This document shows, piece by piece, positions 2,700-30,546 of a DNA stretch of 32,000 nucleotides (positions are counted from its first letter, which is position 1; the number at the start of each line of letters is the position of its first letter). The notes under the pieces are model-generated. The model was given only the letters and a program-made list of their open reading frames with translations. It was not told the origin of the DNA and made no database searches. Both the position numbers and the translations under genes were made by a program. Source of the DNA: a virus; the IMG/VR virus record IMGVR_UViG_3300035670_013237, positions 30,001 to 62,000 of that record; one strand, written 5' to 3'.

Positions 2700-3674
2700 A
2701 TGTCGACAGATGAACGGCCTTTTCTCATCATTGATTCGATGAACCTCTTCGTGAGGTCTTATAGTGCATACCCCACAATGTCTGCGCACGGATATCAGAT
2801 GGGCGGGTGCATAGGCTACCTGAAGACCCTGAGGAGGCTGGTGAACGAAATCGGCCCGCAAGGCGTCTATATTGCCTGGGAAGGTGGCGGTTCGCAGAAG
2901 CGCCGGGCCCTGTACTCAGAATACAAGTTGAATCGAAAACCTGAGAAGCTAAATCGCTTCTATGAGGACGATATTCCTGACAGTGACGACAACAAGAAGC
3001 ACCAGATCATTGCTCTTTTGGGCATGCTGAAGTGCATTCCTGCATGCCAGATTTATGTCTCAGACTGTGAGGGTGATGACGTCATTGCTTATTTGGTGAG
3101 AGGTCCCCTGAGGAACAAGCCAAAGATTGTCGTGTCATCCGACAAGGACATGTACCAGCTGCTCGATGACACGACTAAGATATACAGCCTGCACAAGAAG
3201 ACGTACATCACGATTCCTGATGTGGTCGAAGAATTCCGCGTGCAGCCCAAGAACTTTGCGATTGCAAAAGCCCTGTGCGGCGATCCGACGGACAATATTC
3301 CAGGTGTTAAGGGCTTAGGGTTCAAGACTGTGGCTAAGTCGCTGCCATTTCTTTCGACAGAGGAGGACGTCATACTGGAAGATGTTTTCAAGTATTGTCA
3401 TGCACACTCTGACGAGTCTACGATTTTACGCAGGATAATTGGGCACGAAGATGACATAAAGCGAAACTGGAAGCTCGTCCACCTGGACGGTAGCATGCTC
3501 TCAGCTGCACAGTCTACCAAGGTCGACCATCTCATCAATACATTCACTCCTATAGCAGATAGAATGGGACTCATTAGAAGCTTAGTTCGTGAGGGCATCA
3601 ATGATTTTGATGTGGAGGGATTCTTCTACACATTCAACTGCATTTCTGGCGTCGAGAACAAAACGAGGAATTAA
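2700..3674 (+). CDS. 5'-3' exonuclease / flap endonuclease (PIN plus H3TH, PolA N-terminal-domain type)
   Basis: 'FLIIDSMNLFVRSY', 'GDDVIAYL', 'VVSSDKDMYQLL' and 'GDPTDNIPGVKGLGFKTVAKSL' are the classic 5'-nuclease acidic clusters and the H3TH motif. Confidence 0.85.
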   Translation: MSTDERPFLIIDSMNLFVRSYSAYPTMSAHGYQMGGCIGYLKTLRRLVNEIGPQGVYIAWEGGGSQKRRALYSEYKLNRKPEKLNRFYEDDIPDSDDNKKHQIIALLGMLKCIPACQIYVSDCEGDDVIAYLVRGPLRNKPKIVVSSDKDMYQLLDDTTKIYSLHKKTYITIPDVVEEFRVQPKNFAIAKALCGDPTDNIPGVKGLGFKTVAKSLPFLSTEEDVILEDVFKYCHAHSDESTILRRIIGHEDDIKRNWKLVHLDGSMLSAAQSTKVDHLINTFTPIADRMGLIRSLVREGINDFDVEGFFYTFNCISGVENKTRN

Positions 3675-5169: not shown

Positions 5170-7338
5170 ATGAGCACATACACGTATCAGCAGGTTCGTG
5201 ATGCGTCGATTAAGTACTTTGGCGGTGACGAGCTCGCCGCGGAAGTCTTTGCGGGCAAGTATGCCCTCAGGGATCTGGCGGGGAGCATTTATGAACTGAC
5301 ACCCTCAGACATGCATCGTCGTCTTGCAAAAGAATTTGCTAGGATTGAGGCCAAATATCCTAACCCTCTCACGGAGAAGGAGATTTTCTGTCTCTTTGCA
5401 GATCTTGAACACCTTGACTTGCCCACTCGTGAGTCCATGACTCTTGATGAACTTGCGGCTGAATCACGTGGTCTTGGATCAGTCATTCCACAGGGCTCTC
5501 CAATGTCAGCGATTGGAAATGACCACCAATTCCAGTCACTCTCCAATTGTTTTGTTATTGAATCCCCACACGACTCTTATGGCGGCATCATGAAGGCCGA
5601 CCAGGAAGAAGCCCAAATCATGAAGCGCCGTGGTGGTGTTGGATTTGACATTTCCACAATCCGCCCAAAAGGCATTGTGACTGCTAATGCAGCCCGAACC
5701 ACTGATGGTATTGGTGTCTTCATGGAGCGCTTCTCTAACACTTGTCGTGAGGTTGCGCAGGGAGGTCGCCGCGGAGCCTTGATGTTGACGATTGATGTCC
5801 ATCACCCAGAGATTCGCACCTTCATCAACATCAAGCGTGACCTGAAGAAGGTGACAGGCGCCAACATCTCAATTCGTCTTTCAGATGAATTCATGCAGGC
5901 AGTCAAAGATGGTGGCAAGGCTCACCTCCGATTCCCAGTCCAGAAGGATGCCCAGCACATTGTGTCTGAACATGTAGATGCTGGTGAATTGTGGCATGAG
6001 ATCATTGAAGCCGCCTGGGCATCAGCGGAGCCTGGTTTGCTCTTCTGGGACACGGTTCTTCGTCGTGGTCCTGCTGATGCATATGCAAGCCATGGATATC
6101 TTTCAACATCTACGAATCCCTGTGGGGAGATCACGTTGTCTCCGTATGACTCGTGCCGTCTGCTGCTCGTTAATCTTTCAAAATTTGTGAAGAATCCTTT
6201 TACGGCCGATGCTTCATTTGATTTTAATAAATTCAATGACACGGTTAAGAAAGCACAGAGATTGATGGACGATCTGATCGATCTGGAGCTCGAGGCGGTC
6301 GATCGAATTCTTGATAAGATCAAGAGCGATCCTGAGCCAGAGGAGGTGAAGAGGCCCGAACTCAATCTGTGGATGAAGATTCGCTCTGCGGCTATCAATG
6401 GTCGTCGAACAGGCTTGGGCATCACGGCCTTGGGAGACGCACTCGCATACCTCAACGTTCGTTATGGTTCTGACGAATCTGTCACAAAGACAGATGAACT
6501 TTATCGCGGCTTGGCATTGGGTGCTTATAGGTCAACTGTGGAGATGGCACGTGATCGTGGAGCATTCCCTGTGTTTTCACATGACATTGAAAAGGGTCAT
6601 CCTTTCATTGAGCAGGTGTTGAACGAGGATCCTGCTTTACGTGCAGATTATGAAAAGTATGGTCGTCGTAATATCGCGTTGACAACAACAGCACCCGCAG
6701 GCTCGGTTTCGATTCTCACCCAGACGACGTCAGGCTGTGAGCCGGCGTTCATGTTGGGATACAAGCGCCGCCGCAAGATTAATCCCAGTGACTTTGAGGC
6801 GAAGGTTGACTTTATCGATCCGCTCGGGGATAAGTGGCAGGAGTACATGGTTTATCACCATGGATTCAAGAAGTGGATGGATGTCTCGGGTAAGACGATG
6901 GATCAGGCCCCTGAGTCTCCTTATTATGGTGCCACATCAAATGAGATCGACTGGGTCAAGAAGGTCGACATGCAGGCCGCGGCTCAGAAGTGGATTTGTC
7001 ATTCAATTTCTAATACTTGTGTGGCGGCCGACGCCTTGGTTGAAACAGACATGGGGCTGCTATATATGGATGAGATAGCAAATGATGCAGGTTGTAGCGA
7101 TAATGAACCTGCTCCTGTTAAAGACCTAAGGGTAAAAAATCACCTTGGTCGTAATGCCTCAGTTGGTCTTGTGTCCTCACAAGGAGAAAAGCAGGTCTAT
7201 CGTGTTACTACTAAATCAGGAAATAGTGTCATAACCACGAATGATCATAAATTCATTCTCCTGAATGAGATCAGTGATATTGAGGCATGGACACCTCTTT
7301 TTGATATCAACGTCGGCGACAGAATCAAATTATCATAA
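5170..7338 (+). CDS. nrdJ: Class II (B12-dependent) ribonucleotide reductase, N-extein (5170-7017) fused to the N-terminal split-intein half (7018-7335)
   Basis: RNR motifs 'SNCFV', 'RRGGVGFDIS', 'NPCGEITL' and 'TTAPAGSVSIL'. After 'KWICHSISNT' the sequence switches to intein block A 'CVAADALVETD' and block B 'TTNDHKF', then stops after 106 intein residues. SD GGAGA lies 8 nt upstream of the ATG. Confidence 0.85.
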   Translation: MSTYTYQQVRDASIKYFGGDELAAEVFAGKYALRDLAGSIYELTPSDMHRRLAKEFARIEAKYPNPLTEKEIFCLFADLEHLDLPTRESMTLDELAAESRGLGSVIPQGSPMSAIGNDHQFQSLSNCFVIESPHDSYGGIMKADQEEAQIMKRRGGVGFDISTIRPKGIVTANAARTTDGIGVFMERFSNTCREVAQGGRRGALMLTIDVHHPEIRTFINIKRDLKKVTGANISIRLSDEFMQAVKDGGKAHLRFPVQKDAQHIVSEHVDAGELWHEIIEAAWASAEPGLLFWDTVLRRGPADAYASHGYLSTSTNPCGEITLSPYDSCRLLLVNLSKFVKNPFTADASFDFNKFNDTVKKAQRLMDDLIDLELEAVDRILDKIKSDPEPEEVKRPELNLWMKIRSAAINGRRTGLGITALGDALAYLNVRYGSDESVTKTDELYRGLALGAYRSTVEMARDRGAFPVFSHDIEKGHPFIEQVLNEDPALRADYEKYGRRNIALTTTAPAGSVSILTQTTSGCEPAFMLGYKRRRKINPSDFEAKVDFIDPLGDKWQEYMVYHHGFKKWMDVSGKTMDQAPESPYYGATSNEIDWVKKVDMQAAAQKWICHSISNTCVAADALVETDMGLLYMDEIANDAGCSDNEPAPVKDLRVKNHLGRNASVGLVSSQGEKQVYRVTTKSGNSVITTNDHKFILLNEISDIEAWTPLFDINVGDRIKLS

Positions 7339-7339
7339 T

Positions 7340-7380
7340 TTTCTTGCCCACACCATATTTATAATGGGATGGGCAAGAAA
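7340..7380 (+). promoter_or_regulatory. 11-bp perfect inverted repeat enclosing the endonuclease start codon
   Basis: TTTCTTGCCCA (7340-7350) pairs with TGGGCAAGAAA (7370-7380). The 19-nt loop contains TATAAT (7360-7365). ATG 7369-7371 overlaps the right arm. Confidence 0.45.
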
Positions 7381-8424
7381 GTGTCAAAATCTAGAACAAG
7401 GTTTACGTGTAAAGTTTGTCAAAAAGAACGTGAAGAAATGAACAGCATCATTAAAAAATCAACAAGCTTGAGCAATGGATGCTGTTCACTTGAGTGCTTC
7501 AAAACGACTAAAGAATATTTTTCTCTAAGAAAAGAATCAGATGATAAACGTATTGCCCGTATAAGAATGACCGGTGATTTTCATAAAAATGGAATGGCAG
7601 GGAAAATTACACGTGCAAAAAATTTCTTACATGCTTTAGGGCTTGACACAAGTGAGATGAGTGTTAGCACACTTTTAGCAGAATTTAAGAGACTCTTTTC
7701 TATTCATGCTGGACATGGTGAAAAAATCAAAATAGGAAGGGAAAAGAAGCGGCCAGATCCTGAGGATAGAAAAAAATCTGACCAAGAAAGAGTTGTAAAG
7801 GGCGCATGTAATATGCTGGGGATAAAGTTTGACCCTGACATGTCTTTGATTCTTAGAAAAGAAATTACAAAAAGAGCTTTTGCAAGATTTCGTTCACACA
7901 GTAAAAAAGAATGGAAGCTCAAACACCTGCTCAATATCGGCATGCAGGTGCTTGACGTTTCAGAAGAAAATATCGACAGGCTGTATACTGAGTATCTTTC
8001 AAGAAGATTTAAGAAAAGCTCAATTGAAACAGAAAAAAATGGTTATTCGTGTACAGAAAAAGGCTGGTATGTTATGACTAGCTCCACAGATAGATTTTTT
8101 TATAGATCTTCTTGGGAAAAGAAAGTATTTGAGGCGTTAGATCTGCTTTTGGGCGAGGGAAAAATATTAGACGTGATTGAGCCAGAAAGAGTTCCATATA
8201 GTTTTGATAATATCAAGCGCCACTATTATCCTGATGCATGTTTTATCAATTCAAAAGGGCAAAAAATTGTTCTAGAAATCAAACCGCTAGAAAAATGTGC
8301 TGATCCAATAAACAGTGAAAAATTTTGCGCAGCAAAATCTATTCCTGAAATTTCTTTCCACATTTTGACGGAAGTAGAAATTTTTCAAAAAGACATTAAG
8401 GAATACTTGGAGACCCTAATATGA
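7369..8424 (+). CDS. Free-standing putative homing endonuclease: N-terminal Cys-rich (zinc-finger-like) region plus C-terminal PD-(D/E)XK (TnsA-N-like) nuclease fold
   Basis: The N-terminus has 'FTCKVCQKE...NGCCSLECF'. The C-terminus 'YRSSWEKKVFEALD...HYYPDACFINSKGQKIVLEIKPLEK' fits the E...PD...(D/E)xK pattern. The ORF is Lys-rich and AT-rich, and lies between the two nrdJ halves. Confidence 0.6.
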   Translation: MGKKVSKSRTRFTCKVCQKEREEMNSIIKKSTSLSNGCCSLECFKTTKEYFSLRKESDDKRIARIRMTGDFHKNGMAGKITRAKNFLHALGLDTSEMSVSTLLAEFKRLFSIHAGHGEKIKIGREKKRPDPEDRKKSDQERVVKGACNMLGIKFDPDMSLILRKEITKRAFARFRSHSKKEWKLKHLLNIGMQVLDVSEENIDRLYTEYLSRRFKKSSIETEKNGYSCTEKGWYVMTSSTDRFFYRSSWEKKVFEALDLLLGEGKILDVIEPERVPYSFDNIKRHYYPDACFINSKGQKIVLEIKPLEKCADPINSEKFCAAKSIPEISFHILTEVEIFQKDIKEYLETLI

Positions 8425-9446
8425 ACAGCGATACCATCAAAGATGTTTGCCTAGATCCTAGGGGAAGAATTCCCCTCAATTTTAGAAAAGATAAAAAATC
8501 AGCAGCAACATTTTTGATGCTGGTGTCAACTCTGAATCTCGAAAAAGAGCAGATAAAAAATCCAGGTTATTGGACAATTTATAGGTGGTTGAATGATGAG
8601 CACAATCACAATGATTATGATGAAGTTATTTCAATTGAAAAACTTGGATTTGAAAAAACTTATGACCTAACTGTTCCTGACGGCAATTCATTTACTGCAA
8701 ATGGAATCACGGTTCACAATTGCAATCTTCCAAATAACATTAGCGTTGAGACTGTCAAAGAGGTCTATATGCGTGGTTGGGAGACGGGCTGCAAGGGCGT
8801 CACCATCTATCGAGACGGTAGTCGTACTGGTGTGTTGGTGTCAGACGAGCCGAAGAAGGAAGCAGAAGAGGTTGACGGACAGCCCGAGAAAATTCTTGAA
8901 AATCACGCCCCTAAGAGACCTAAGGAACTTTCTTGCGATATTCACAGGGTGAACGTGAAGGGTGAATCTTACCTTGTTCTTGTAGGCATGTTGGATGGCG
9001 CACCTTATGAGGTCTTCGCTGGTCTGTCTGAACACGTTGAGGTTCCAAAAAAGGCTAAGACCGGTGTTCTAATCAAGAATGGCAAGAAGGATGGCGTGGC
9101 GACGTACAACCTTCGAATTCCAGTCGGTGATGATGACTCTGTTCTTTTCAAGGACGTTGTAGAGCTGTTCTCCAACAAGGTTTATGGCGCCTTCACTCGT
9201 ACAATCTCCTTGGCTCTGCGGCATGGTGTACCTGTCCAGTACCTTGTTGAACAACTGCGTAAGGACAAGAGTAGCGACATCACCTCATTCTCAAGTGTGA
9301 TTGCTCGTGTGCTCAGCAAGGGATACATTCCTGATGGCACAAAGACCACCATCGAGAAGAAGTGTCTCGAGTGTGGCGGCACAAATCTTGCATATCAGGA
9401 TGGCTGTGTGACGTGCATGGATTGTGGATCCTCAAAGTGCGGATGA
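8421..9446 (+). CDS. nrdJ: C-terminal split-intein half (ending at 8720) fused to the nrdJ C-extein (8721-9446)
   Basis: Intein blocks F/G 'TYDLTVPDGNSFTANGITVHN' are followed by +1 Cys. The RNR sequence follows: 'CNLPNNISVETVKEVYMRGWETGCKGVTIYRDGSR', with a C-terminal Zn-ribbon 'CLECGG...CVTCMDCGSSKCG'. The ATG overlaps the endonuclease stop (ATGA). Confidence 0.8.
   Translation: MNSDTIKDVCLDPRGRIPLNFRKDKKSAATFLMLVSTLNLEKEQIKNPGYWTIYRWLNDEHNHNDYDEVISIEKLGFEKTYDLTVPDGNSFTANGITVHNCNLPNNISVETVKEVYMRGWETGCKGVTIYRDGSRTGVLVSDEPKKEAEEVDGQPEKILENHAPKRPKELSCDIHRVNVKGESYLVLVGMLDGAPYEVFAGLSEHVEVPKKAKTGVLIKNGKKDGVATYNLRIPVGDDDSVLFKDVVELFSNKVYGAFTRTISLALRHGVPVQYLVEQLRKDKSSDITSFSSVIARVLSKGYIPDGTKTTIEKKCLECGGTNLAYQDGCVTCMDCGSSKCG
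8613..8720 (+). other. Canonical Int-C core (36 aa: DYDEVISIEKLGFEKTYDLTVPDGNSFTANGITVHN)
   Basis: The length and the terminal HN followed by Cys are typical of Int-C halves. The upstream boundary is approximate. Confidence 0.6.
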
Positions 9447-10105
9447 AAATGAATACTAATCACATAGAATTAATTGGTTTTTATGGAGGAGACGAGGCTC
9501 ATGCCTTGTCTGCTTGGACTTCAACCTCTCGTGATTTGTCACAGGAGAAGCGCGCCAGAATGGGCAAGCTCCTGAAGGACCTCGCGTCGAATGGACATGA
9601 AACCCCATTCGAGAAGAGCTCTCTGCATTTCCTCGTGACGACTGAGATTGCGACGCACATTCAACTTTTGAAGCATCGAATTGGTGTTTCAGTCAACGCT
9701 GAATCTGCACGCTACAAAGAGCTGAAGGACGACAAGTATTATGTCCCTACTGACTGGGATGACGAAGAGCGTGACCGGTACATCCAGCACTTAGAAGACT
9801 CATTAAAAAAGTATCATGAAACGTTGGGCCGTCTTGTTAAGAAGGGTGTCAACAGGAAGCGCGCGAAAGAGTCTGCACGCTTCTACCTGCCCTACGGCAA
9901 CCAGATCACGGCGGACATTATGTTCAACTTTAGGAGCTTCGTCCACTTCTTGCGCCTTCGCTACTCTACACACGCTCAGCTCGAGATTCGTGAAGTGGCC
10001 CGACAGATGCTTGAAGCTGTGGTGGCTGCAGACACTTTCAAGGAAAGCCTGCTTGCATTTGGATTAGTGCAAGAGGATGGCACCATCCGGCCTCCTTTCT
10101 CTTGA
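9443..10105 (+). CDS. thyX: Flavin-dependent thymidylate synthase
   Basis: ThyX signature 'KHRIGVSVNAESARY' (RHRxxSxNxxSxRY type), plus 'HETPFE' and 'ARFYLP'. ATG 9443 overlaps the nrdJ TGA. An alternative ATG lies at 9449. Confidence 0.9.
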   Translation: MKMNTNHIELIGFYGGDEAHALSAWTSTSRDLSQEKRARMGKLLKDLASNGHETPFEKSSLHFLVTTEIATHIQLLKHRIGVSVNAESARYKELKDDKYYVPTDWDDEERDRYIQHLEDSLKKYHETLGRLVKKGVNRKRAKESARFYLPYGNQITADIMFNFRSFVHFLRLRYSTHAQLEIREVARQMLEAVVAADTFKESLLAFGLVQEDGTIRPPFS

Positions 10106-13207: not shown

Positions 13208-13738
13208 ATGAAAAGCTCTCTGCTGCTCAACGCTGATTACACGCCGCTGCACTTCGTCAGCAATGTTCGTGCTTTTGCTCTCGTTTTCAAGGGCCGTGCT
13301 GAGATCCTTGACATGGACGGAAAACCGAGCGTTTGGTCTGAGGATATCGTTAGAACGCCAACCGCATCTTATAATTTACCAGCCACGATCAGGCTCTTGA
13401 AGCGGGTCAATGTGAGGTGGCATCCTCCAAAATTTCGCAAGAGCGCAGTTTTTAGCCGCGACAATTGGCAGTGCCAATACTGCAGAGCTGACCTCTATCG
13501 ATCAAATATGACGATTGACCACGTGTTCCCCCGCTCTCGTGGGGGCGAGACGTCGTGGAAAAATTGCGTTGCCTCATGCAAAAATTGCAACAGGAGGAAG
13601 GCAAATAAAACTCCCTCTGAGGCTGAGATGCCGCTCTTAAAAGTGCCTGTGGAACCCACGCCAGTCCATTTTTGGTCGATGAATAAGTGTAGCGCAAGCT
13701 GGCATGAAGATTGGGCGATCTTTATTCCTCGCGGCTAA
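13208..13738 (+). CDS. HNH endonuclease (McrA-like, with N-terminal 'LLLNADYTPL' domain)
   Basis: 'WQCQYCRADLYRSNMTIDHVFPRSRGGETSWKNCVASCKNCNRRKANK' is a complete CxxC...DH...N...CxxCN HNH motif. Confidence 0.85.
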   Translation: MKSSLLLNADYTPLHFVSNVRAFALVFKGRAEILDMDGKPSVWSEDIVRTPTASYNLPATIRLLKRVNVRWHPPKFRKSAVFSRDNWQCQYCRADLYRSNMTIDHVFPRSRGGETSWKNCVASCKNCNRRKANKTPSEAEMPLLKVPVEPTPVHFWSMNKCSASWHEDWAIFIPRG

Positions 13739-16442: not shown

Positions 16443-17449
16443 AAAATAAGATGAAGGTTTTTATTACGGGTGCCGCAGGATTTTTGGGCAGCCATCTGAT
16501 GTTGCACCACCTCAAACGTGGTGATAGTGTACTGGGTGCGGACAACTATTCGTCTTCCAAGAGAGATTCCCGGCACATCAAGCTGCTGCGCGAGCTCTAT
16601 AGTCCTGATCGCTATTCACTCTGTGACGTTGACATCACAGAGTACATGGACATCTTGTGGGAGTTTGAGAAGTTCAATGCCAAGTGTCCTGGAAAATTTG
16701 ATCTAATCTATAATTTTGCATGCCCAGCATCGCCCCCAAGGTATCAGAACATTCCAGTTGAGACCCTGCTCACTTGCACTGTGGGCACGGCAAACGTGCT
16801 TCAGATGGCAAAGCAGCATGGATCTGTCGTTGTTCATGCCTCGACGTCTGAAGTTTATGGTGACCCAATCGTGAGTCCCCAGCCTGAGACCTACAGGGGC
16901 AATGTCAATCCTTATGGCCCAAGGTCTTGCTATGACGAGGGCAAGCGGGCAGCTGAGGCTCTGTGCTATGATTATTTGCATAAGCATAATGTTGACGTGC
17001 GCGTGGCTCGGATCTTCAACACCTATGGTCCGCACATGGACATGGAAGACGGCCGCGTCATTAGCAATTTTATCGTGCAGGCTCTTCGTGGTGAACCATT
17101 CACTCTGTATGGACAAGGCAAGCAGACACGCAGCTTCTGTTACGTAGACGACATGGTCCGTGGCATCACTGCACTCGCAAAAATTCCCAAGAATCCAGGA
17201 ACGCCTGTTAATGTGGGCAACCCTGAAGAGTTCAAGATCAGTGAGCTCGCGGTCATCGTCAATGCTATGATCCACTCAGGCACGCAGCCTAAGATCAAGA
17301 AGCTACCGCTGCCTGTAGACGATCCGCTCCAGAGGAAGCCTGACACAACTTTGGCAAAGCAGCTGCTCGGGTGGAACCCACAGGTTTCTCTGGCTGAGGG
17401 CCTGTCAAAGACGATAGACTGGTTTCGAGAAGAGTTGGCTCCTGTTTAG
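16439..17449 (+). CDS. UDP-glucuronate decarboxylase (UDP-xylose synthase), SDR-family NAD-dependent epimerase/dehydratase
   Basis: 'ITGAAGFLGSHL', 'STSEVYGDP...PQPETYRGNVNPYGPRSCYDEGKRAAE', 'RIFNTYGPHM...DGRVISNF' and 'GQGKQTRSFCYVDD' are hallmark UXS motifs. Confidence 0.85.
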   Translation: MKNKMKVFITGAAGFLGSHLMLHHLKRGDSVLGADNYSSSKRDSRHIKLLRELYSPDRYSLCDVDITEYMDILWEFEKFNAKCPGKFDLIYNFACPASPPRYQNIPVETLLTCTVGTANVLQMAKQHGSVVVHASTSEVYGDPIVSPQPETYRGNVNPYGPRSCYDEGKRAAEALCYDYLHKHNVDVRVARIFNTYGPHMDMEDGRVISNFIVQALRGEPFTLYGQGKQTRSFCYVDDMVRGITALAKIPKNPGTPVNVGNPEEFKISELAVIVNAMIHSGTQPKIKKLPLPVDDPLQRKPDTTLAKQLLGWNPQVSLAEGLSKTIDWFREELAPV

Positions 17450-17472
17450 TTTTTATACGTTAGCTAAAAGAT

Positions 17473-17531
17473 CCAACCTCAGTGTAAATTTTGGTAGTCA
17501 TGTATTACACTGAGGTTGGTCTTTCATTTTA
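17473..17531 (+). terminator. Strong hairpin terminator or processing site between uxs and dnaE
   Basis: 15-bp perfect stem: CCAACCTCAGTGTAA (17473-17487) pairs with TTACACTGAGGTTGG (17505-17519). The loop is 17 nt, and TCTTTCATTTT follows. Confidence 0.7.
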
Positions 17532-17546
17532 AGACGGAAGGAATAA

Positions 17547-20500
17547 ATGAATTCAACTGCAAACTCGGAGGGTCAAGAGAACCCGGTGAGGGCGCCGAAT
17601 CGCTTTGTCGGTTTGCACGCTCATACCGGGTTCTCCTAGTGATCCCCATTTGATGGACTTGGTTATCCTGATGAGCACTTCGCGTGGTGCATCGAAAACG
17701 GCCTTGATGCACAGGCAATTACTGAACACGGCAACTTCAATTCTTATGCTCATGCCCAACTTTGGGTAGAGAAGTGGAATTCTTCTGGTAAGGGAAGCTT
17801 CAAGTATATTCCCGGAATTGAAGCCTATTTCCACCCTGATCTTGCACAGTGGCAGCGGGACAAAGAGCTGGCAGAGCAGGCACAGTCTGACAAGAAGGCT
17901 GCCGCGAAGCTTGCAAAGACGCAAGAAGCACTTCTGACGAAGATTATTGCGCATGTCGATGAATCAGACGAGACTGAAGAGATTGAGACGACAAACGCTC
18001 TGACCATTGAGAATGAAGACGAGACGAAATCCACAAAGCACTTCAACCCCGTCAACAGGCGTCATCACCTTGTGATTCTGCCCAAAAACCAGAAGGGCCT
18101 GCTTTCTATCTTTGGTGCCTGCTCAAAGTCCTACATCGACGGATTTTATCGATTCCCACGCATGGATTTCAACATGCTCAAGGAAGCAGGAAAAGACGGA
18201 AATGTCCTCGTGTCGTCTGCCTGCATCGGCGGCTTCCCAGCCTGGGGCGTGTTCCAAGAACTCCAGAAAATCTCTTTTGACTCCCTAAATGAGAAATTGC
18301 TCGACGATCCCACGCTTTTGGAAAAGTGCATTCGCTCTGTGGGCAATGTTTATGACATGATGGTTTCCGCGGTGGGAAGGGAGAACTATTATCTCGAGCT
18401 TCAGTTCAACAGGCTTCCTGCACAAAACCTCGTCAACCGTGCACTCATTGAATTTGCGAGGAGGAATGGTGTAACCAGCCAGCTGGTCGTGACATGCGAT
18501 TCACACTATCACCGTCCGGAGCTCTGGAAAGAGCGTGAGCTGTACAAGAAGCTCGGCTTCATGAATTACACTACATACAGCCCAGACTCTCTTCCTAAGA
18601 GCAAAGACGACCTCAAGTGTGAGCTGTATCCAAAGAATGCAACGCAAGTGTGGAGTGAGTACCTCAAGTCCAAAGAGGGCACATCATTTTATGATGACAG
18701 CTTGATTGCTGATGCAATAGAGCGCACACACGACATTGCACATCGAGTAATTGGTGAAGTGCCGGCCGATCGCTCAGCCAAGTTTCCGACTAAGAAGCTC
18801 ATTCCTGAAGGATCGTCGTCTTTCAACCACCTTGTCACCCTCTGCAAAGAAGGTATGGTGAAGCGTGGCCTGCAAGACAAGCCTGGATATATTGAGCGCC
18901 TCAGAGAGGAGCTGGGTGTTATCAAGACGATGAAGAATGCTGATTACTTCATCTCGTACCAGAAAATCATGGAGCTGGCTCGCGAGGTTTGTCTCGTTGG
19001 TCCTGCCCGCGGTTCTGGTGGCGGCTCTCTTGTTGCCTATGTTCTCTACATCACTGATCTAGATCCGATATACTGGGATCTCCCCTTCAGCCGATTTCTA
19101 TCCGTCTACCGCCAAGGTGCGCCTGACATTGATACAGACCTTTCAGATCGTGACAAGGTGCTTGAACAGCTTCGTAATTATTTTGGGTTTGAGAACGTCG
19201 TGCCCATTTCCAATTATAACACGTTCAAGTTGAAGACTCTCGTCAAGGACATTGGTAAATTCTATGGTGTTCCATTTGAAGAAACTAATGCAGCGACTCG
19301 AACAGTAGAAGATGATGTGCGTAAGGCCACTCAGAAGCACGGTGATGATAAGAACATGTTCGTACTTCAGTACGACGACGCATATGCTCATTCACCCTCA
19401 TTCAAAGCCTTCATCGACAAGTACCCACAGATTGCTGAGTCGATCAAAGTTCTTTTCAAGCAGAATCGCTCTCTCGGTCGACACGCAGGCGGTGTGCTCA
19501 TTGCTGACGACTTGCCTAATAAGATGCCTCTCATCACGTCAGGCGGTGAGCCGCAATCACCCTGGGTCGAGGGCTTGAATTTCAAGCACTTGGAGTACAT
19601 TGGTAATTTCATCAAGTATGATTTGCTCGGCCTTGAAACGTTGCGCCTAATCGAGAGGACGATTGAGCTGATACTCATCAAGCAGGGGAATCAAGCTCCC
19701 ACGTTCAAAGATGTTCGTGCGTGGTACGAAGAACACCTTGCACCTTCAAAGATTAATTTTGATGATCCTAAGCCCTATGAAGTGTACGAAAAAGCTCGGT
19801 GGGGTGGAATTTTCCAGCTCACGAGCCAAGGTGCCCAGCGTCTCTTTGTCAAAGCCAAGCCGAAGAGTATCATCGACATTGCAGCTCTCACTTCCATCTA
19901 TCGACCTGGCCCCTTGGCTGCGAATGTAGACAACTTGTGGCTGAAGCATGCTGAAGAGCCTTACGACTGGGGTCATCCTCTCATCAATGACACGCTCAAG
20001 GAAACCCGAGGTCTCCTCGTCTTCCAAGAAGGTGTCATGGCACTCGCGAATAAGGTAGCAGGTTTTCCGCTCGCTGAATGTGATGAAGTGCGTCGAGCAA
20101 TCATGAAGAGAAATCTCTCGGCAGGCGACGCTGCGAAGAAGAAAGTGAAGGAGCTCGAAGATTCGTTCGTCGCAGGTGCCGTGAAGAATGGTGTACCTGA
20201 ATCTGTCGCACGGCGAATGTATGAGACTATCTGCTTCATGAGCGGTTATGGTTTCAACAAGTCACATGCAGTGGCATATGCAATCGATTCTTTCTGGTGT
20301 GCGTGGCTCATGACTTATTACGAAGAAGAATGGGTCTGTGCGTACATGGAGTCCATGTCAGGCTCGCCTGAGACAAGGGCGAAAGCATTTGGTGAAGTGA
20401 AAGCGCTCGGCTACCAGATCGTTCCAATTGACATCAATCTCGCTGAGCTGGGCTGGACTGTTCTTCCAGGCAAGAAGCTGATGCCCTCCATGAAATCTTG

Positions 20501-21281
20501 TAAGGGAGTGGGTGATTCAGCAGTCGAAGAAATCATGCAGAATCGTCCGTACAGGACGATCGAGGAGCTGCTCTGGGATGATGATTTTCAGTGGAAGCAC
20601 AGCAAGTTCAACAAGAAGGCACTCGACGCTCTGATCAAGATTGGTGCCTTCAATTCAATGGACATCGTTGGAGAAGGCAAGCTCTTCAACAGCTACCATC
20701 ACATGCACGAAACTCTCTTGGGATCTCACGTCGAGACCGTGACTAAGAAGAGAAAGGGTGTTGAGGTAACTGAAGATGTTGAATTCGATCACATGGCACT
20801 GGTCAGGAGGTCCACAAAGACCGATCCACACGAGGGCTTGAAGAATCTCTATAAATTGGTGAGGCAGTGCTCTGAGGTCGAGGAGTGGACTGCATCAGAG
20901 CGTGCACAAAATATGGTTGAAGTATTTGGAACTCTCGACGTTCTGTCACTGATAGACCACAGCTTGCTCTCAGCATTTGAGACTAAGGGCATCAATTCGA
21001 TCGATGCTCTTGAGCCAGGCGACCCGCAGGTGGTCTGGTTTGTTGCGGTGCCTGTTGCACCCAAGAAGGGCACAAAACCATCCGTCGGCTTGAAGAAGAC
21101 CACCAAGACAGGTAAGGAATATGTGCAGATTTTTGCTCTAGGCCCAACAGGTAAAGTAAATAGAATTACAGTCTGGGGGTGCAAAAATCTTCCAGAACCA
21201 TTTACAATATTTTGTGCCGAGGTCAAGAAAGATGACTTTGGGATGTCGACCACACAGTGGAAAATGAGAGAAATATCATGA
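17547..21281 (+). CDS. dnaE: DNA polymerase III alpha subunit (DnaE), reading frame interrupted by in-frame TAG-TGA at 17637-17642
   Basis: SD GGAAGGA plus ATG 17547. PHP motif 'RFVGLHAHTGFS' is followed by the two stops. The same frame then continues 'SPFDGLGYPDEHFAWCIENGLDAQAITEHGN...' into the 1069-aa ORF. That ORF carries 'GPARGSGGGSLVAYVLYITDLDP', 'PDIDTDL', 'RHAGGVLIA', 'YRPGPL' and 'GYGFNKSHAVAYA'. Confidence 0.85.
17634..17645 (+). other. Candidate recoding (hop) site TCC-TAG-TGA-TCC inside dnaE
   Basis: Identical Ser codons flank the two stops. Skipping 9 nt restores the H-x-H-[ST]-x-[FY]-S-x-x-D-G spacing seen in E. coli DnaE (VHSDYSMIDG). Confidence 0.5.
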
Positions 21282-23153: not shown

Positions 23154-23698
23154 ATATGATGATTGCACTTGAGGGACCTGATATGTGCGGGAAGACTCAG
23201 ATAGGCCGCGAGTTGGCTTCTAAGTTGAGTCTTGCATACTATAAAAATTCAGGAGAATGGTCGGGGGATTTACGGACAACTGATTATTTCAAAAATGTTC
23301 TGACTTATGGCACATACATTCAGACTGACATGCTATGTCAGGTCAGGCCGCAAATTTTGCTCGATCGCTTTTATCCCTCTGAGTGGGTTTATTCAAAGGT
23401 CTTCAAGCGTGAGACTGATATAGATGCTCTTGCACGAATCGATCAAATGTTCGCAAGAGCAGGTGGGCGTATCGTCGTGTGCCGGCGAAAGTCCTATGAT
23501 GGAATCACGGATGACTTGCACAGCTATGTTGGGTCCGAGGTTCTGAGGGAGCTTGATAGGGTTTACGAAGATTTTTCAAAATGGACGAAATGTAACACAA
23601 TGACGCTATGGGTTGACGATCACAATCTAGCCCGTCAGGTCACTGACATCCTGCAGTGGATTTCATCTGGTAAGAATAATAGTTTAGGTGAACTATGA
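23150..23698 (+). CDS. Deoxynucleoside-monophosphate kinase (thymidylate-kinase-like P-loop kinase)
   Basis: P-loop 'IALEGPDMCGKTQ' and 'DRFYPSEWVY' (the DRY/S motif region of Tmk-like kinases). It is translationally coupled on both sides. Confidence 0.6.
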   Translation: MNMMIALEGPDMCGKTQIGRELASKLSLAYYKNSGEWSGDLRTTDYFKNVLTYGTYIQTDMLCQVRPQILLDRFYPSEWVYSKVFKRETDIDALARIDQMFARAGGRIVVCRRKSYDGITDDLHSYVGSEVLRELDRVYEDFSKWTKCNTMTLWVDDHNLARQVTDILQWISSGKNNSLGEL

Positions 23699-24459
23699 AA
23701 ATCAATACAGTCTCTGATGTACGCAATGAATTTTCTAATTTAATCGCCTGGAGCCGATATGTCGGTCTCAACCGTGAGGCATCAATGACGAACTTGATGG
23801 GTTCGAGCACGGTCGAGATCGTGGGTGCTTGCTTCGTCGCTGATGAAGACGTCATCTTTGGCAAGGTGAACAGCGACTATGTAGAGCGCGAGAAACTGTG
23901 GTACGAGTCCATGTCACGTAGTGTCAACGATTTTCCAGGTGGGGCGCCCCCTGTCTGGAAGGCAATCGCTGACGCTGATGGGTTGATCAATTCGAACTAT
24001 GGCTGGTGTATCAACAGTCCAGAAAATGGTTCGCAATTTGAAAAGGTTGTGAAGGAACTCAAGAAGAATCCAGAGAGCCGTCGGGCAATCATCATTTATA
24101 CACGGCCCTCAATGTGGGAAGATTATAACCACAATGGTCGCAGCGATTTCATGTGTACGAATGCTGTCCAGTATTTGATTCGTGAAGGGAAAGTTCACTC
24201 CGTGGTCCAGATGAGGAGCAATGACGCGATCATTGGTTATAAGAATGACCGTGCATGGCAGCAAGACGTATTGAAGAAAGTCGCAGAAGAAGTAGGTTAC
24301 CCTGCCGGAAGTGTCATCTGGCAGGTCGGAAGCCTCCATGTGTACGAGCGTGACTTTTATCTTGTCGATTACTATGCAAAGACTGGGACACTATCAGTCA
24401 CTAAGTCGAAGTATTGCTCGTTATATCCTGATTCACCCTTTGCTAAGGATCTCAAATGA
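23695..24459 (+). CDS. dCMP hydroxymethylase (T4 gp42 homolog)
   Basis: Long colinear matches to T4 gp42: 'EIVGACFVADEDVIFG', 'INSNYGWCINS', 'NPESRRAIIIYTRPSMWEDYNHNGRSDFMCTNAVQYLIREGKVHSVVQMRSNDAIIGYKNDRAWQ' and 'GSVIWQVGSLHVYERDFYLVD'. Confidence 0.9.
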   Translation: MKINTVSDVRNEFSNLIAWSRYVGLNREASMTNLMGSSTVEIVGACFVADEDVIFGKVNSDYVEREKLWYESMSRSVNDFPGGAPPVWKAIADADGLINSNYGWCINSPENGSQFEKVVKELKKNPESRRAIIIYTRPSMWEDYNHNGRSDFMCTNAVQYLIREGKVHSVVQMRSNDAIIGYKNDRAWQQDVLKKVAEEVGYPAGSVIWQVGSLHVYERDFYLVDYYAKTGTLSVTKSKYCSLYPDSPFAKDLK

Positions 24460-29843: not shown

Positions 29844-30546
29844 TGGTAAGAATATTTTAGGCGGCGAACTTGACAAGATCTTGAAGAAGGCTGTCAAGGA
29901 GTCAGTGGGCTCTAGTAAAGAAAATTTGGGAGAGGCTTATGTAGCTTCTCCAAAAACTTTCAAGCAGGTCACTGAGCTCAGCAGCCAGAAATCTAAAGAC
30001 GCGCACATTGAGCTCTACAAGGGCTATGTCGAATCGCTGAATGACGTTTCATCGAAGCTGGACACTGCGGACAAGAACGAGGCTAATTCCCGGCACTCAA
30101 ACTTTCGCTCGTTGAAGCTCGATGAAGCGTACAACCTCAATGCAGTGTGGCTCCACGAGCTGCATTTCGCAAATTGCTTCGATCCCCACAGTGAGATTGT
30201 GATGGATTCGATTGCTTACCTTAAGCTCCAGCGGGACTTCGGCACGTTCGATGACTGGCAGCGTGACTTCATCGCGACTGCAATGTCAGCGGGCAACGGC
30301 TGGGCCGTGTGCGGATACCACACGTTCTTGAAGCGCTACGTTAACATGGTCGTTAGCCACCACAGTGGGGACGTGATGCTGGGCGTGTACCCGACGATTG
30401 TCGTCGACATGTGGGAGCATGCATACGCTCGTGATTACCTCACTGACAAGAAGACATATCTCGTGTCGAGAATGCGCGAATTTAACTGGACAGTCATCGA
30501 TGACAGATTCAAGCGGGCGGAAGCCATCGCAGGGGCGGTGAAGTGA
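29830..30546 (+). CDS. Fe/Mn superoxide dismutase family protein (divergent N-terminal helix motif)
   Basis: C-terminal ligand motif 'DMWEHAYARDY' (canonical D-x-W-E-H-A-Y-Y-x-x-Y) and 'WLHELHF' (second His ligand region). The N-terminus has 'AHIELYKGYVESLN' instead of 'H..KHH..YV..LN'. Confidence 0.65.
   Translation: MSLLDGKNILGGELDKILKKAVKESVGSSKENLGEAYVASPKTFKQVTELSSQKSKDAHIELYKGYVESLNDVSSKLDTADKNEANSRHSNFRSLKLDEAYNLNAVWLHELHFANCFDPHSEIVMDSIAYLKLQRDFGTFDDWQRDFIATAMSAGNGWAVCGYHTFLKRYVNMVVSHHSGDVMLGVYPTIVVDMWEHAYARDYLTDKKTYLVSRMREFNWTVIDDRFKRAEAIAGAVK

Follow-up and report, generated by a model that had tools for sequence, protein, structure and literature searches.

Probable programmed translational bypassing of a short, stop-led gap in a family of phage dnaE genes

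Results

Two consecutive stop codons interrupt a phage dnaE gene

The stretch of viral DNA analyzed here, called the window below, comprises 32,000 nucleotides (nt) of IMG/VR record IMGVR_UViG_3300035670_013237 (positions 30,001 to 62,000, one strand). It holds a phage replication module (UvsX, DnaB, ribonucleotide reductase, ThyX and an HNH nuclease) and a dnaE gene, encoding the α subunit of DNA polymerase III (Pol III), whose reading frame is broken near its 5′ end by tandem stop codons. A Shine–Dalgarno (SD)-like GGAAGGA (17536–17542, plus strand), read directly from the sequence, lies 4 nt upstream of an ATG at 17547. The first open reading frame (ORF1; 17547–17636, +) translates into 30 codons, MNSTANSEGQENPVRAPNRFVGLHAHTGFS, that include PHP motif I (HxH). 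The whole frame from 17547 to 21281 reads MNSTANSEGQENPVRAPNRFVGLHAHTGFS, two stops and then SPFDGLGYPDEHF…, with the next stop only at 21281. The context at 17631–17648 is TTC TCC TAG TGA TCC CCA (TTC, 17631–17633; TAG, 17637–17639; TGA, 17640–17642; CCA, 17646–17648). From the sequence and comparison with homologs, the TCC at 17634–17636 (+; Ser30) is the putative take-off codon, the 6-nt TAG TGA (17637–17642, +) is the coding gap that would be skipped, and the identical TCC at 17643–17645 (+) is the candidate landing codon, placed by the homolog spacing GFS-P-FDG. ORF2, defined by translation and domain content, runs from CCA (Pro) for 1211 codons to a TGA stop (17646–21281, +). An earlier, sequence-only reading of this DNA had described the same layout of SD, ATG and TCC TAG TGA TCC, and our inspection agrees with it.

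That reading also held that the upstream 30 codons and the downstream body are one gene, which is borne out by the continuous frame and by the PHP, DNA_pol3_alpha, finger and HHH_6 domains downstream, which together make up a full DnaE. As it had further claimed, no ATG, GTG or TTG occurs in frame for 143 codons past the gap, the first being a GTG at 18072, and neither alternative frame carries homology: the +1 frame shows no resemblance to DnaE and terminates after 44 codons, and the +2 frame meets a stop immediately. Of the window's 35 long ORFs, 20 end in TGA, 12 in TAA and 3 in TAG, with a coding density of 94% under code 11. Reassignment of a stop codon was ruled out, as all three stops end other genes of the window, and no tRNA genes, including suppressor tRNAs, are present in the window.

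An independent assembly (Logan, SRR11566349) is 100% identical to the window across 7 kb, and a locus from a different metagenome (L234), 86.5% identical to the window, has the same TCC TAGTGA TCC; an assembly error, which the sequence-only reading had set out as the first thing to exclude, is thereby excluded. The window and L234 are 93–100% identical from −75 to +45. We considered a fixed nucleotide-level signal around the gap and rejected it: other members of the clade vary at synonymous sites, and the identity reflects recent shared ancestry. Megablast found no close DNA relatives among deposited phages, where the best tblastn match has 27.5% identity, so that no cultured or annotated phage can serve as a reference. 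In the public gene call for the identical Logan contig (L309 4011–4736, corresponding to window 17449–18174), dnaE starts 725 nt past the end of the upstream epimerase gene, and the 1035-aa product misses ORF1 and ~170 codons of ORF2. Databases probably contain systematically truncated versions of gapped dnaE genes.

The same serine codon is interrupted in a large family of relatives

Searching IMG/VR by homology yielded 65 related dnaE loci, 12 of them broken within the first PHP motif. A pattern scan for G-x-H-x-H-x-G-F-S followed by T[AG][AG] gave 36 matches in IMG/VR, and 32 of these were dnaE genes broken at this Ser codon. As a negative control, the same pattern was run on 596 Gb of bacterial and archaeal genomes, where it gave 87 matches, none in dnaE and all due to chance. 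A metagenome pattern scan contributed many further loci, among the matches listed. In total, 91 non-redundant dnaE 5′ ends were collected from viral and metagenome contigs; at least 54 are broken at exactly this Ser codon, and 37 are ungapped.

The gapped set comprises at least 36 distinct combinations of take-off codon, gap and landing codon, with gaps of 2–13 nt (gap/landing examples are TA/ACG, TAG/TCG and TGAAGACACTTAA/TCT). Every one of the 36 gap variants opens with a stop codon (TAA, 14; TGA, 13; TAG, 9). The displacements in relatives span 5–16 nt, and many of them alter the reading frame. In a neighbor-joining tree of the downstream protein, gapped and ungapped genes are interleaved across one large clade, and a more distant clade is ungapped throughout. 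The downstream ORF is under strong purifying selection, with dN/dS of 0.04–0.055 between gapped pairs; for pairs that include the window, synonymous sites are saturated. In each of the 54 relatives the downstream dnaE frame is free of stops, except for split-intein insertions in some.

These insertions were seen in L002, L018, L020, L055, L056, L070, L074, L093, L096, L260, L280 and others, where dnaE is interrupted again ~270–990 codons in. They were considered as further bypass sites and rejected, being split-intein 'fractured gene' junctions: the N-terminal fragments have intein-like ends (…NRGWVEAQxL…EV, then a stop) and are followed by Cys-rich ORFs (split-intein/endonuclease insertions). 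The window dnaE has no such downstream interruption.

Landing triplets match the take-off codon

In all of these comparisons, only protein homology was used to set the landing position, through the invariant S-x-[F/Y/M]-D-G spacing. Placed in this way, the landing triplet shares at least two of three bases with the take-off codon in 36 of 36 variants, compared with 0–12 of 36 at 15 neighboring offsets. The landing codons are TCN in 23 variants, [A/G]C plus the same third base in 10, and TTG after TCG, where a G•U pair is possible, in 3. The take-off Ser codon is TCN in 54/54 gapped but only 22/37 ungapped genes (p = 2e-7). C makes up 2% of gap composition, so premature NCN landing triplets are almost absent from the gaps.

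Removal of the gap restores collinearity. In the window, HAHTGFS|PFDGL then matches the GFSPFDG of the ungapped loci L001 and L005, and S-x-[FYM]DG is recovered in 36/36 variants. In L056, L057 and L002, the +1 frame meets a TAA just before the landing codon, so that only a hop would restore the protein there; more generally, because many gaps change the frame, neither readthrough nor a single-base frameshift can explain the whole set. On this comparative evidence, only re-pairing of tRNA-Ser at a non-overlapping downstream triplet would explain all variants under one rule. Three features generally expected of bypassing are apparent at the locus: a gap flanked by collinear coding sequence, take-off and landing codons that one tRNA can read, and an A-site stop. 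The TCC-to-TCC hop of tRNA-Ser suggested by the sequence-only reading thus gains support from the 54 same-site relatives, the 36/36 landing matches and the frame-changing gaps, and the conserved matched-codon gap that it had proposed to look for in related dnaE 5′ ends was found in 36 variants, all matching at two or more bases.

A 5′ stem-loop ends in the take-off codon

Codons 1 to ~10–14 of dnaE form an N-terminal extension seen only in gapped relatives, and the start codon precedes take-off by a median of 29 aa in gapped versus 20 aa in ungapped genes. The fold of 17530–17660 contains a strong hairpin (z = −3.75). Its 5′ arm, GAGAACCCGGUG, occupies codons E11-N-P-V14 (17577–17588, +), as placed by the minimum free energy (MFE) fold and by pairing in relatives, and its 3′ arm, UACCGGGUUCUC, reaches the second base of the take-off codon (17624–17635, +; MFE fold). 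The duplex energy between the last 14 nt and the upstream 76 nt averages −17.1 kcal/mol in gapped loci (n = 44), as against −6.9 in ungapped loci (n = 36) and −7.9 at control positions (Mann–Whitney p = 7e-14).

The pairing is kept in the same register, with 9–12 of 12 positions paired in most gapped relatives. In a 25-sequence alignment (A1), 85% of cells are paired versus at most 60% in slid controls, and the covariation score is 0.288 versus at most 0.18 when slid, a value that 0 of 500 shuffles reach; RNAalifold recovers the same helix independently. Compensatory sets within the helix include AAC/GGG, AAT/GGA and AAG/GGC, and in L021 a change of F to R (CGC) in the PHP motif is answered by CGC in the 5′ arm. 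In groups with three extra loop codons, the 5′ arm is displaced upstream by 9 nt. The end of the helix falls inside the take-off codon in 41 of 45 gapped sequences, and longer helices go with longer hops (rho = 0.63, p = 3e-6).

The conserved E-N/K-P-V codons complement those for T/S-G-F-S, with compensatory changes. For this reason, a nascent-peptide signal from ENPV, of the kind known from phage T4 gene 60, was rejected as the primary explanation, and the conservation of ENPV is attributed to RNA pairing with the TGFS codons; the extension may have a peptide role besides.

Two relatives, L013 and L044, are built differently. Their break lies three codons earlier (CAT TCG TAA … TCA GGA TTC, ~3040–3130), and the gap is 39 nt long, with a perfect 12-bp in-gap hairpin that starts from the stop codon, a TCG take-off codon and a TCA landing codon. 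Their own 5′ helix, AAUGCGCG/CGCGCAUU, abuts the take-off codon. They represent a second bypass architecture in the same gene family, one nearer to gene 60.

A nuclease gene is associated with the gap in relatives

The gapped locus L006 and the ungapped locus L007 show ~100% identity over −2500 to −1100 and again starting at +116, the divergent part spanning −1085 to +115. In this interval, L006 has a specific segment of ~1.2 kb with a 293-aa ORF that abuts the dnaE start codon and a different dnaE 5′ end that includes the gap. From +16 to +115 the two loci are 87% identical, a tract that looks like a co-conversion tract. The 293-aa ORF has Cys-rich N-terminal motifs and a PD-(D/E)XK C-terminus (…YTPDF…YEIKG), and it matches Pfam Phage_endo_I (E = 3e-6, under the gathering score) and PHROG 'endonuclease' families (E = 1e-12, PHROG 945). 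Such a T7-endonuclease-I-like gene lies directly upstream of dnaE in 27/44 gapped but only 5/37 ungapped loci (p = 1e-5). The ungapped loci with the gene include L008, L029 and L005, and in L005 the nuclease is recovered as two tblastn pieces in different frames and may be a pseudogene. Since some ungapped loci carry the nuclease, its link to the gap is statistical, not absolute. Another pair, L201 and L039, differs essentially only by a 27-nt extension and a 10-nt gap.

The gene order in the window's subclade is epimerase–[nuclease]–dnaE, with the nuclease gene present in L002, L067, L075, L246 and L276 and absent from the window, L234 and L260. In the window, the epimerase gene ends at 17449, and there is no nuclease gene between it and dnaE. 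The presence/absence and co-conversion pattern of a homing cassette is thus seen in L006/L007 and not in the window itself. By analogy, the gap may be an immunity insert from a homing-nuclease cassette that was later lost from the window's phage or never reached it complete, a suggestion in which we have less confidence than in the hop.

Other elements in the window

A perfect 15-bp inverted repeat, CCAACCTCAGTGTAA … TTACACTGAGGTTGG, with a 16-nt loop lies at 17474–17519, in the 97-nt spacer between epimerase and dnaE. A promoter scan was empty, a simple terminator scan did not pick out this repeat, and a comparison with Rfam gave only far sub-threshold, spurious miRNA-like matches. It may be a terminator or a regulatory hairpin.

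The large subunit of ribonucleotide reductase (RNR) is a 'fractured gene' (5170–9446), an arrangement described by Dassa et al. 2009 (PMC2677866). The ORF at 5170–7338 ends in an N-intein fragment, and that at 8421–9446 opens with a C-intein fragment (Pfam Intein_splicing matches, each under the cut-off). The RNR halves are separated by a 351-aa ORF (7369–8424) with no Pfam family and only a weak phrog_22215 match. We asked whether this ORF is a relative of the dnaE-linked nuclease and rejected the idea: BLASTP found no significant similarity, and the weak phrog_22215 match is all that they have in common. A free-standing HNH endonuclease gene (13208–13738; Pfam HNH_5, E = 5e-16) lies within the replication module; with the fractured RNR gene, it shows that the window genome carries several homing-type elements. 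The ThyX gene lies at 9362–10105 (Thy1, E = 6e-37). A ThyA-family protein (Thymidylat_synt, E = 7e-16) is encoded at 23695–24459 and may be a pyrimidine hydroxymethylase for DNA base modification rather than a second thymidylate synthase.

Discussion

A model for decoding the gapped dnaE gene

Our results support a model in which the window's dnaE is one gene decoded by programmed translational bypassing, that is, by a short ribosome hop, and we regard this as very likely. Beyond the earlier reading, the comparison adds a 5′ stem-loop in the N-terminal extension, a nuclease link in relatives and membership in a large family. Both the occurrence of the hop and its efficiency are predictions from sequence. 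In the proposed mechanism, ribosomes would initiate at ATG 17547, decode 30 codons and then pause, the P site holding peptidyl-tRNA-Ser on TCC (17634–17636) and the A site UAG. The 3′ arm (17624–17635) would still be inside the ribosome at take-off and the 5′ arm (17577–17588) already out. The emerging 3′ arm would then pair with the waiting 5′ arm, and this zipping would draw the mRNA backwards via the exit channel and move the ribosome forward. The tRNA would release, the ribosome would slide 9 nt, and the tRNA-Ser anticodon, meeting its first compatible triplet in a C-free stretch, would re-pair with the identical TCC at 17643–17645. Decoding would restart at CCA to give …HAHTGFS-PFDGLGYP…, a normal PHP motif fused to full-length Pol IIIα. 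The predicted junction peptide is …HAHTGFSPFDGL…, without extra residues, or …HAHTGFSPFDGLGYPDE… in the chymotrypsin/GluC context.

Pairing of the mRNA as it leaves the ribosome has been proposed to drive forward bypassing in gene 60 (10.1101/2024.12.09.627546). Hairpin zipping is a plausible driver of the dnaE hop as well, although we hold this with less confidence than the hop itself. A broader proposal, to which we give an even chance, is that these genes contain a new class of mobile replicase bypass cassette. Such a cassette would consist of a 5′ extension with a hairpin arm and a C-free, stop-led gap; it would be spread by a T7-endonuclease-I-like homing nuclease from whose cleavage the gap protects dnaE, and hairpin zipping behind the ribosome would power and meter the hop, in place of an in-gap hairpin, mini-SD or nascent peptide.

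Several points weigh against this interpretation. Near-cognate landing codons are used in 13 of the 36 variants, and the exact landing triplet is fixed by homolog spacing only. The hop at this site is deduced by comparison among uncultured relatives. These sequences are related, so the landing, duplex, covariation and helix-length statistics overstate independence, and the 25 sequences of alignment A1 were picked for their common N-terminal architecture. Weiss et al. reportedly found in 1987 that unstimulated hops over stops in E. coli reach ~1% or less; because such hops are weak, a useful yield would depend on the proposed stimulators. The inverted repeat could act at the DNA level, instead or additionally. 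Finally, the cassette origin is extended from relatives to the window locus, which has no nuclease gene.

Alternative explanations

An early double stop in an essential gene resembles a null allele or an artifact. A decaying pseudogene or a sequencing or assembly error is nevertheless already contradicted and has a negligible probability: an independent assembly is identical, a relative of 86% identity has the same gap, 54 relatives are broken at the same codon with downstream frames that are stop-free except for split-intein insertions, dN/dS between gapped pairs is 0.04–0.055, and the window has 1211 stop-free codons past the gap. Readthrough, suppression or a simple ±1 frameshift is highly improbable. 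The window gap preserves the frame (9 nt when the landing codon is counted), so that reading through both TAG and TGA to give GFS-X-X-S-PFDG is formally possible, but it would require suppression of two different tandem stops in a window that has no tRNA gene and whose other genes are terminated by all three stops, and it would add three residues inside the invariant spacing of the PHP motif. Across the family, displacements of 5–16 nt, many of them not multiples of 3, do not fit readthrough or frameshifting, and the stop in the +1 frame of L056, L057 and L002 and the lack of homology in the window's +1 and +2 frames likewise argue against a frameshift.

Another possibility is that two polypeptides are made, with termination at TAG releasing a 30-aa peptide and re-initiation at a non-canonical codon giving a DnaE truncated at its N-terminus, which the peptide may or may not complement non-covalently. 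The stop codon in every variant fits this scheme, split genes are common in these phages, and genes of the L056/L057 type have an in-frame ATG (the M of MDG) among the first resumed residues. We nonetheless consider it quite improbable, since the window has no ATG, GTG or TTG for 143 codons past the gap, the HxH motif of ORF1 is still conserved as part of the PHP domain, and two polypeptides would predict neither the match of landing and take-off codons in 36/36 variants nor the exact restoration of S-x-FDG spacing, the C-depleted gaps or the hairpin end inside the take-off codon. It is also unlikely, though somewhat less so, that the inverted repeat and gap are DNA-level signals only, a recognition or immunity structure of the cassette, with any hop being unstimulated. 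The association of the gap with a nuclease gene, the resemblance of that nuclease to T7 endonuclease I, a structure-specific enzyme, and the protection of the gene 60 family against MobA cleavage by its insert (Manning & Atkins) all speak for such a role. Against it, the hairpin is kept with compensatory changes in 17/44 gapped loci that have no nuclease gene, including the window, and an immunity role does not predict a 3′ end locked to the take-off codon or a length that tracks the hop. Cruciform extrusion is, moreover, unlikely with a 35-nt spacer.

Relation to known bypass systems

The bypass of T4 gene 60 and its mobile MobA cassette are well described (Huang 1988; Bonocora 2011; Manning & Atkins, bioRxiv 10.1101/2022.08.31.505936). 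The insert shields members of the gene 60 family from self-cleavage by MobA, and some lineages retain the bypass after loss of the nuclease (Manning & Atkins, 10.1101/2022.08.31.505936). The dnaE family resembles gene 60 in several respects. A non-coding insert divides an essential gene of DNA metabolism at an invariant motif, and it is flanked by matching take-off and landing codons, with a stop immediately 3′ of take-off. The gap contains no premature landing triplets, and an N-terminal extension has been added. Also shared are a linked, free-standing nuclease of homing type and the persistence of the bypass site in lineages without it.

The differences are nonetheless considerable. The host gene is dnaE, with the gap in PHP motif I, rather than the gene for the topoisomerase II large subunit, with the insert at Gly46/Asp45; the gap is 2–13 nt (6 in the window) rather than 50 nt; and the hop would use tRNA-Ser (TCN) rather than tRNA Gly or Asp. 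The window has no in-gap take-off hairpin, and among relatives only L013/L044 have one. Nor is there a mini-SD ~6 nt before landing: TAGTGA holds no GAG, GGA or AGG, and no consistent SD-like element was found in the relatives' gaps. The sequence-only reading had likened the locus to gene 60; that likeness holds for the codon match and the A-site stop, whereas the in-gap hairpin and mini-SD do not carry over, the 6-nt gap being too short for them. The linked nuclease is T7-endonuclease-I-like, a PD-(D/E)XK enzyme with Cys-rich motifs, and not an HNH enzyme like MobA. A 5′ stem-loop is not conserved across gene 60 clades but is the best-conserved element of the dnaE family, and the apparent conservation of the ENPV peptide, unlike the gene 60 nascent peptide, is explained by RNA pairing.

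Short hops have also been reported from E. coli reporter constructs, CUU-UAG-CUA being one example (Weiss et al. 1987, as cited in PMC10732093). They are similar in that a P-site tRNA re-pairs with a cognate or near-cognate triplet a few bases past a stop, and hops of +5 and +6 correspond to the TCG-TA-ACG and TCG-TAG-TCG dnaE relatives. The reporter hops are low-level, artificial and without a dedicated stimulator, whereas the dnaE site is natural, conserved and paired with a hairpin. In the terminase of Streptomyces phage φHau3, 10-nt inserts are bypassed in a UUA-triggered manner (PMC10732093). The two systems share short (~10-nt), frame-changing gaps in a phage gene, a proposed 5′ stem-loop and a bypass inferred from junction spacing (PMC10732093). 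The φHau3 trigger, however, is a rare sense codon tied to host development, whereas that of dnaE is always a stop codon; such inserts occur in only 3/100 terminases (PMC10732093), compared with dozens of variants in the dnaE family; and no nuclease link is reported for φHau3, unlike for the dnaE relatives.

The mitochondrial byps of Magnusiomyces capitatus (Lang 2014) are likewise mobile, sequence-variable gaps with matched or near-matched landing sites, and the AU-richness of their 3′ parts is a further likeness to dnaE. They differ in being mitochondrial, 27–55 nt long with internal hairpins and present at many positions, up to 12 per gene, and they are not described as having a 5′ hairpin locked to the take-off codon. 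The +1 frameshift of prfB (RF2) is also comparable, in that the A site holds a stop and an mRNA element at a fixed short distance upstream pushes the ribosome onward; RF2, however, shifts to an overlapping codon by SD:anti-SD pairing, whereas the dnaE landing site would be non-overlapping and the upstream element consists of an intramolecular hairpin. Natural bypass is known from T4 gene 60 and its homologs (all topoisomerase genes), from the φHau3 terminase and from the mitochondrial byps. Full-text searches found no report of bypassing in DnaE or Pol III, although most papers in subscription journals were outside their scope and novelty is therefore not proven; the family of short skip-over sites to which the dnaE site belongs is widespread and apparently undescribed.

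Implications

Efficient programmed bypassing has so far rested almost wholly on T4 gene 60 and its homologs, the other cases being the mitochondrial byps and one Streptomyces phage candidate. If our reading is true, dnaE would provide an independent second phage bypass family, in another essential gene and with another architecture. It would offer dozens of natural variants in gap length, stop codon, landing codon and hairpin strength, and the 36 or more gap variants would form a ready series for working out the rules of short-range sliding and near-cognate landing. The question of what drives a codon-uncoupled ribosome forward would become directly testable; the helix is anchored in the take-off codon, and helix length follows hop length. 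For genome annotation, the consequence is that gene callers truncate gapped dnaE genes. For phage evolution, our results suggest that bypassing may be a general route by which mobile nucleases place immunity inserts in invariant protein motifs.

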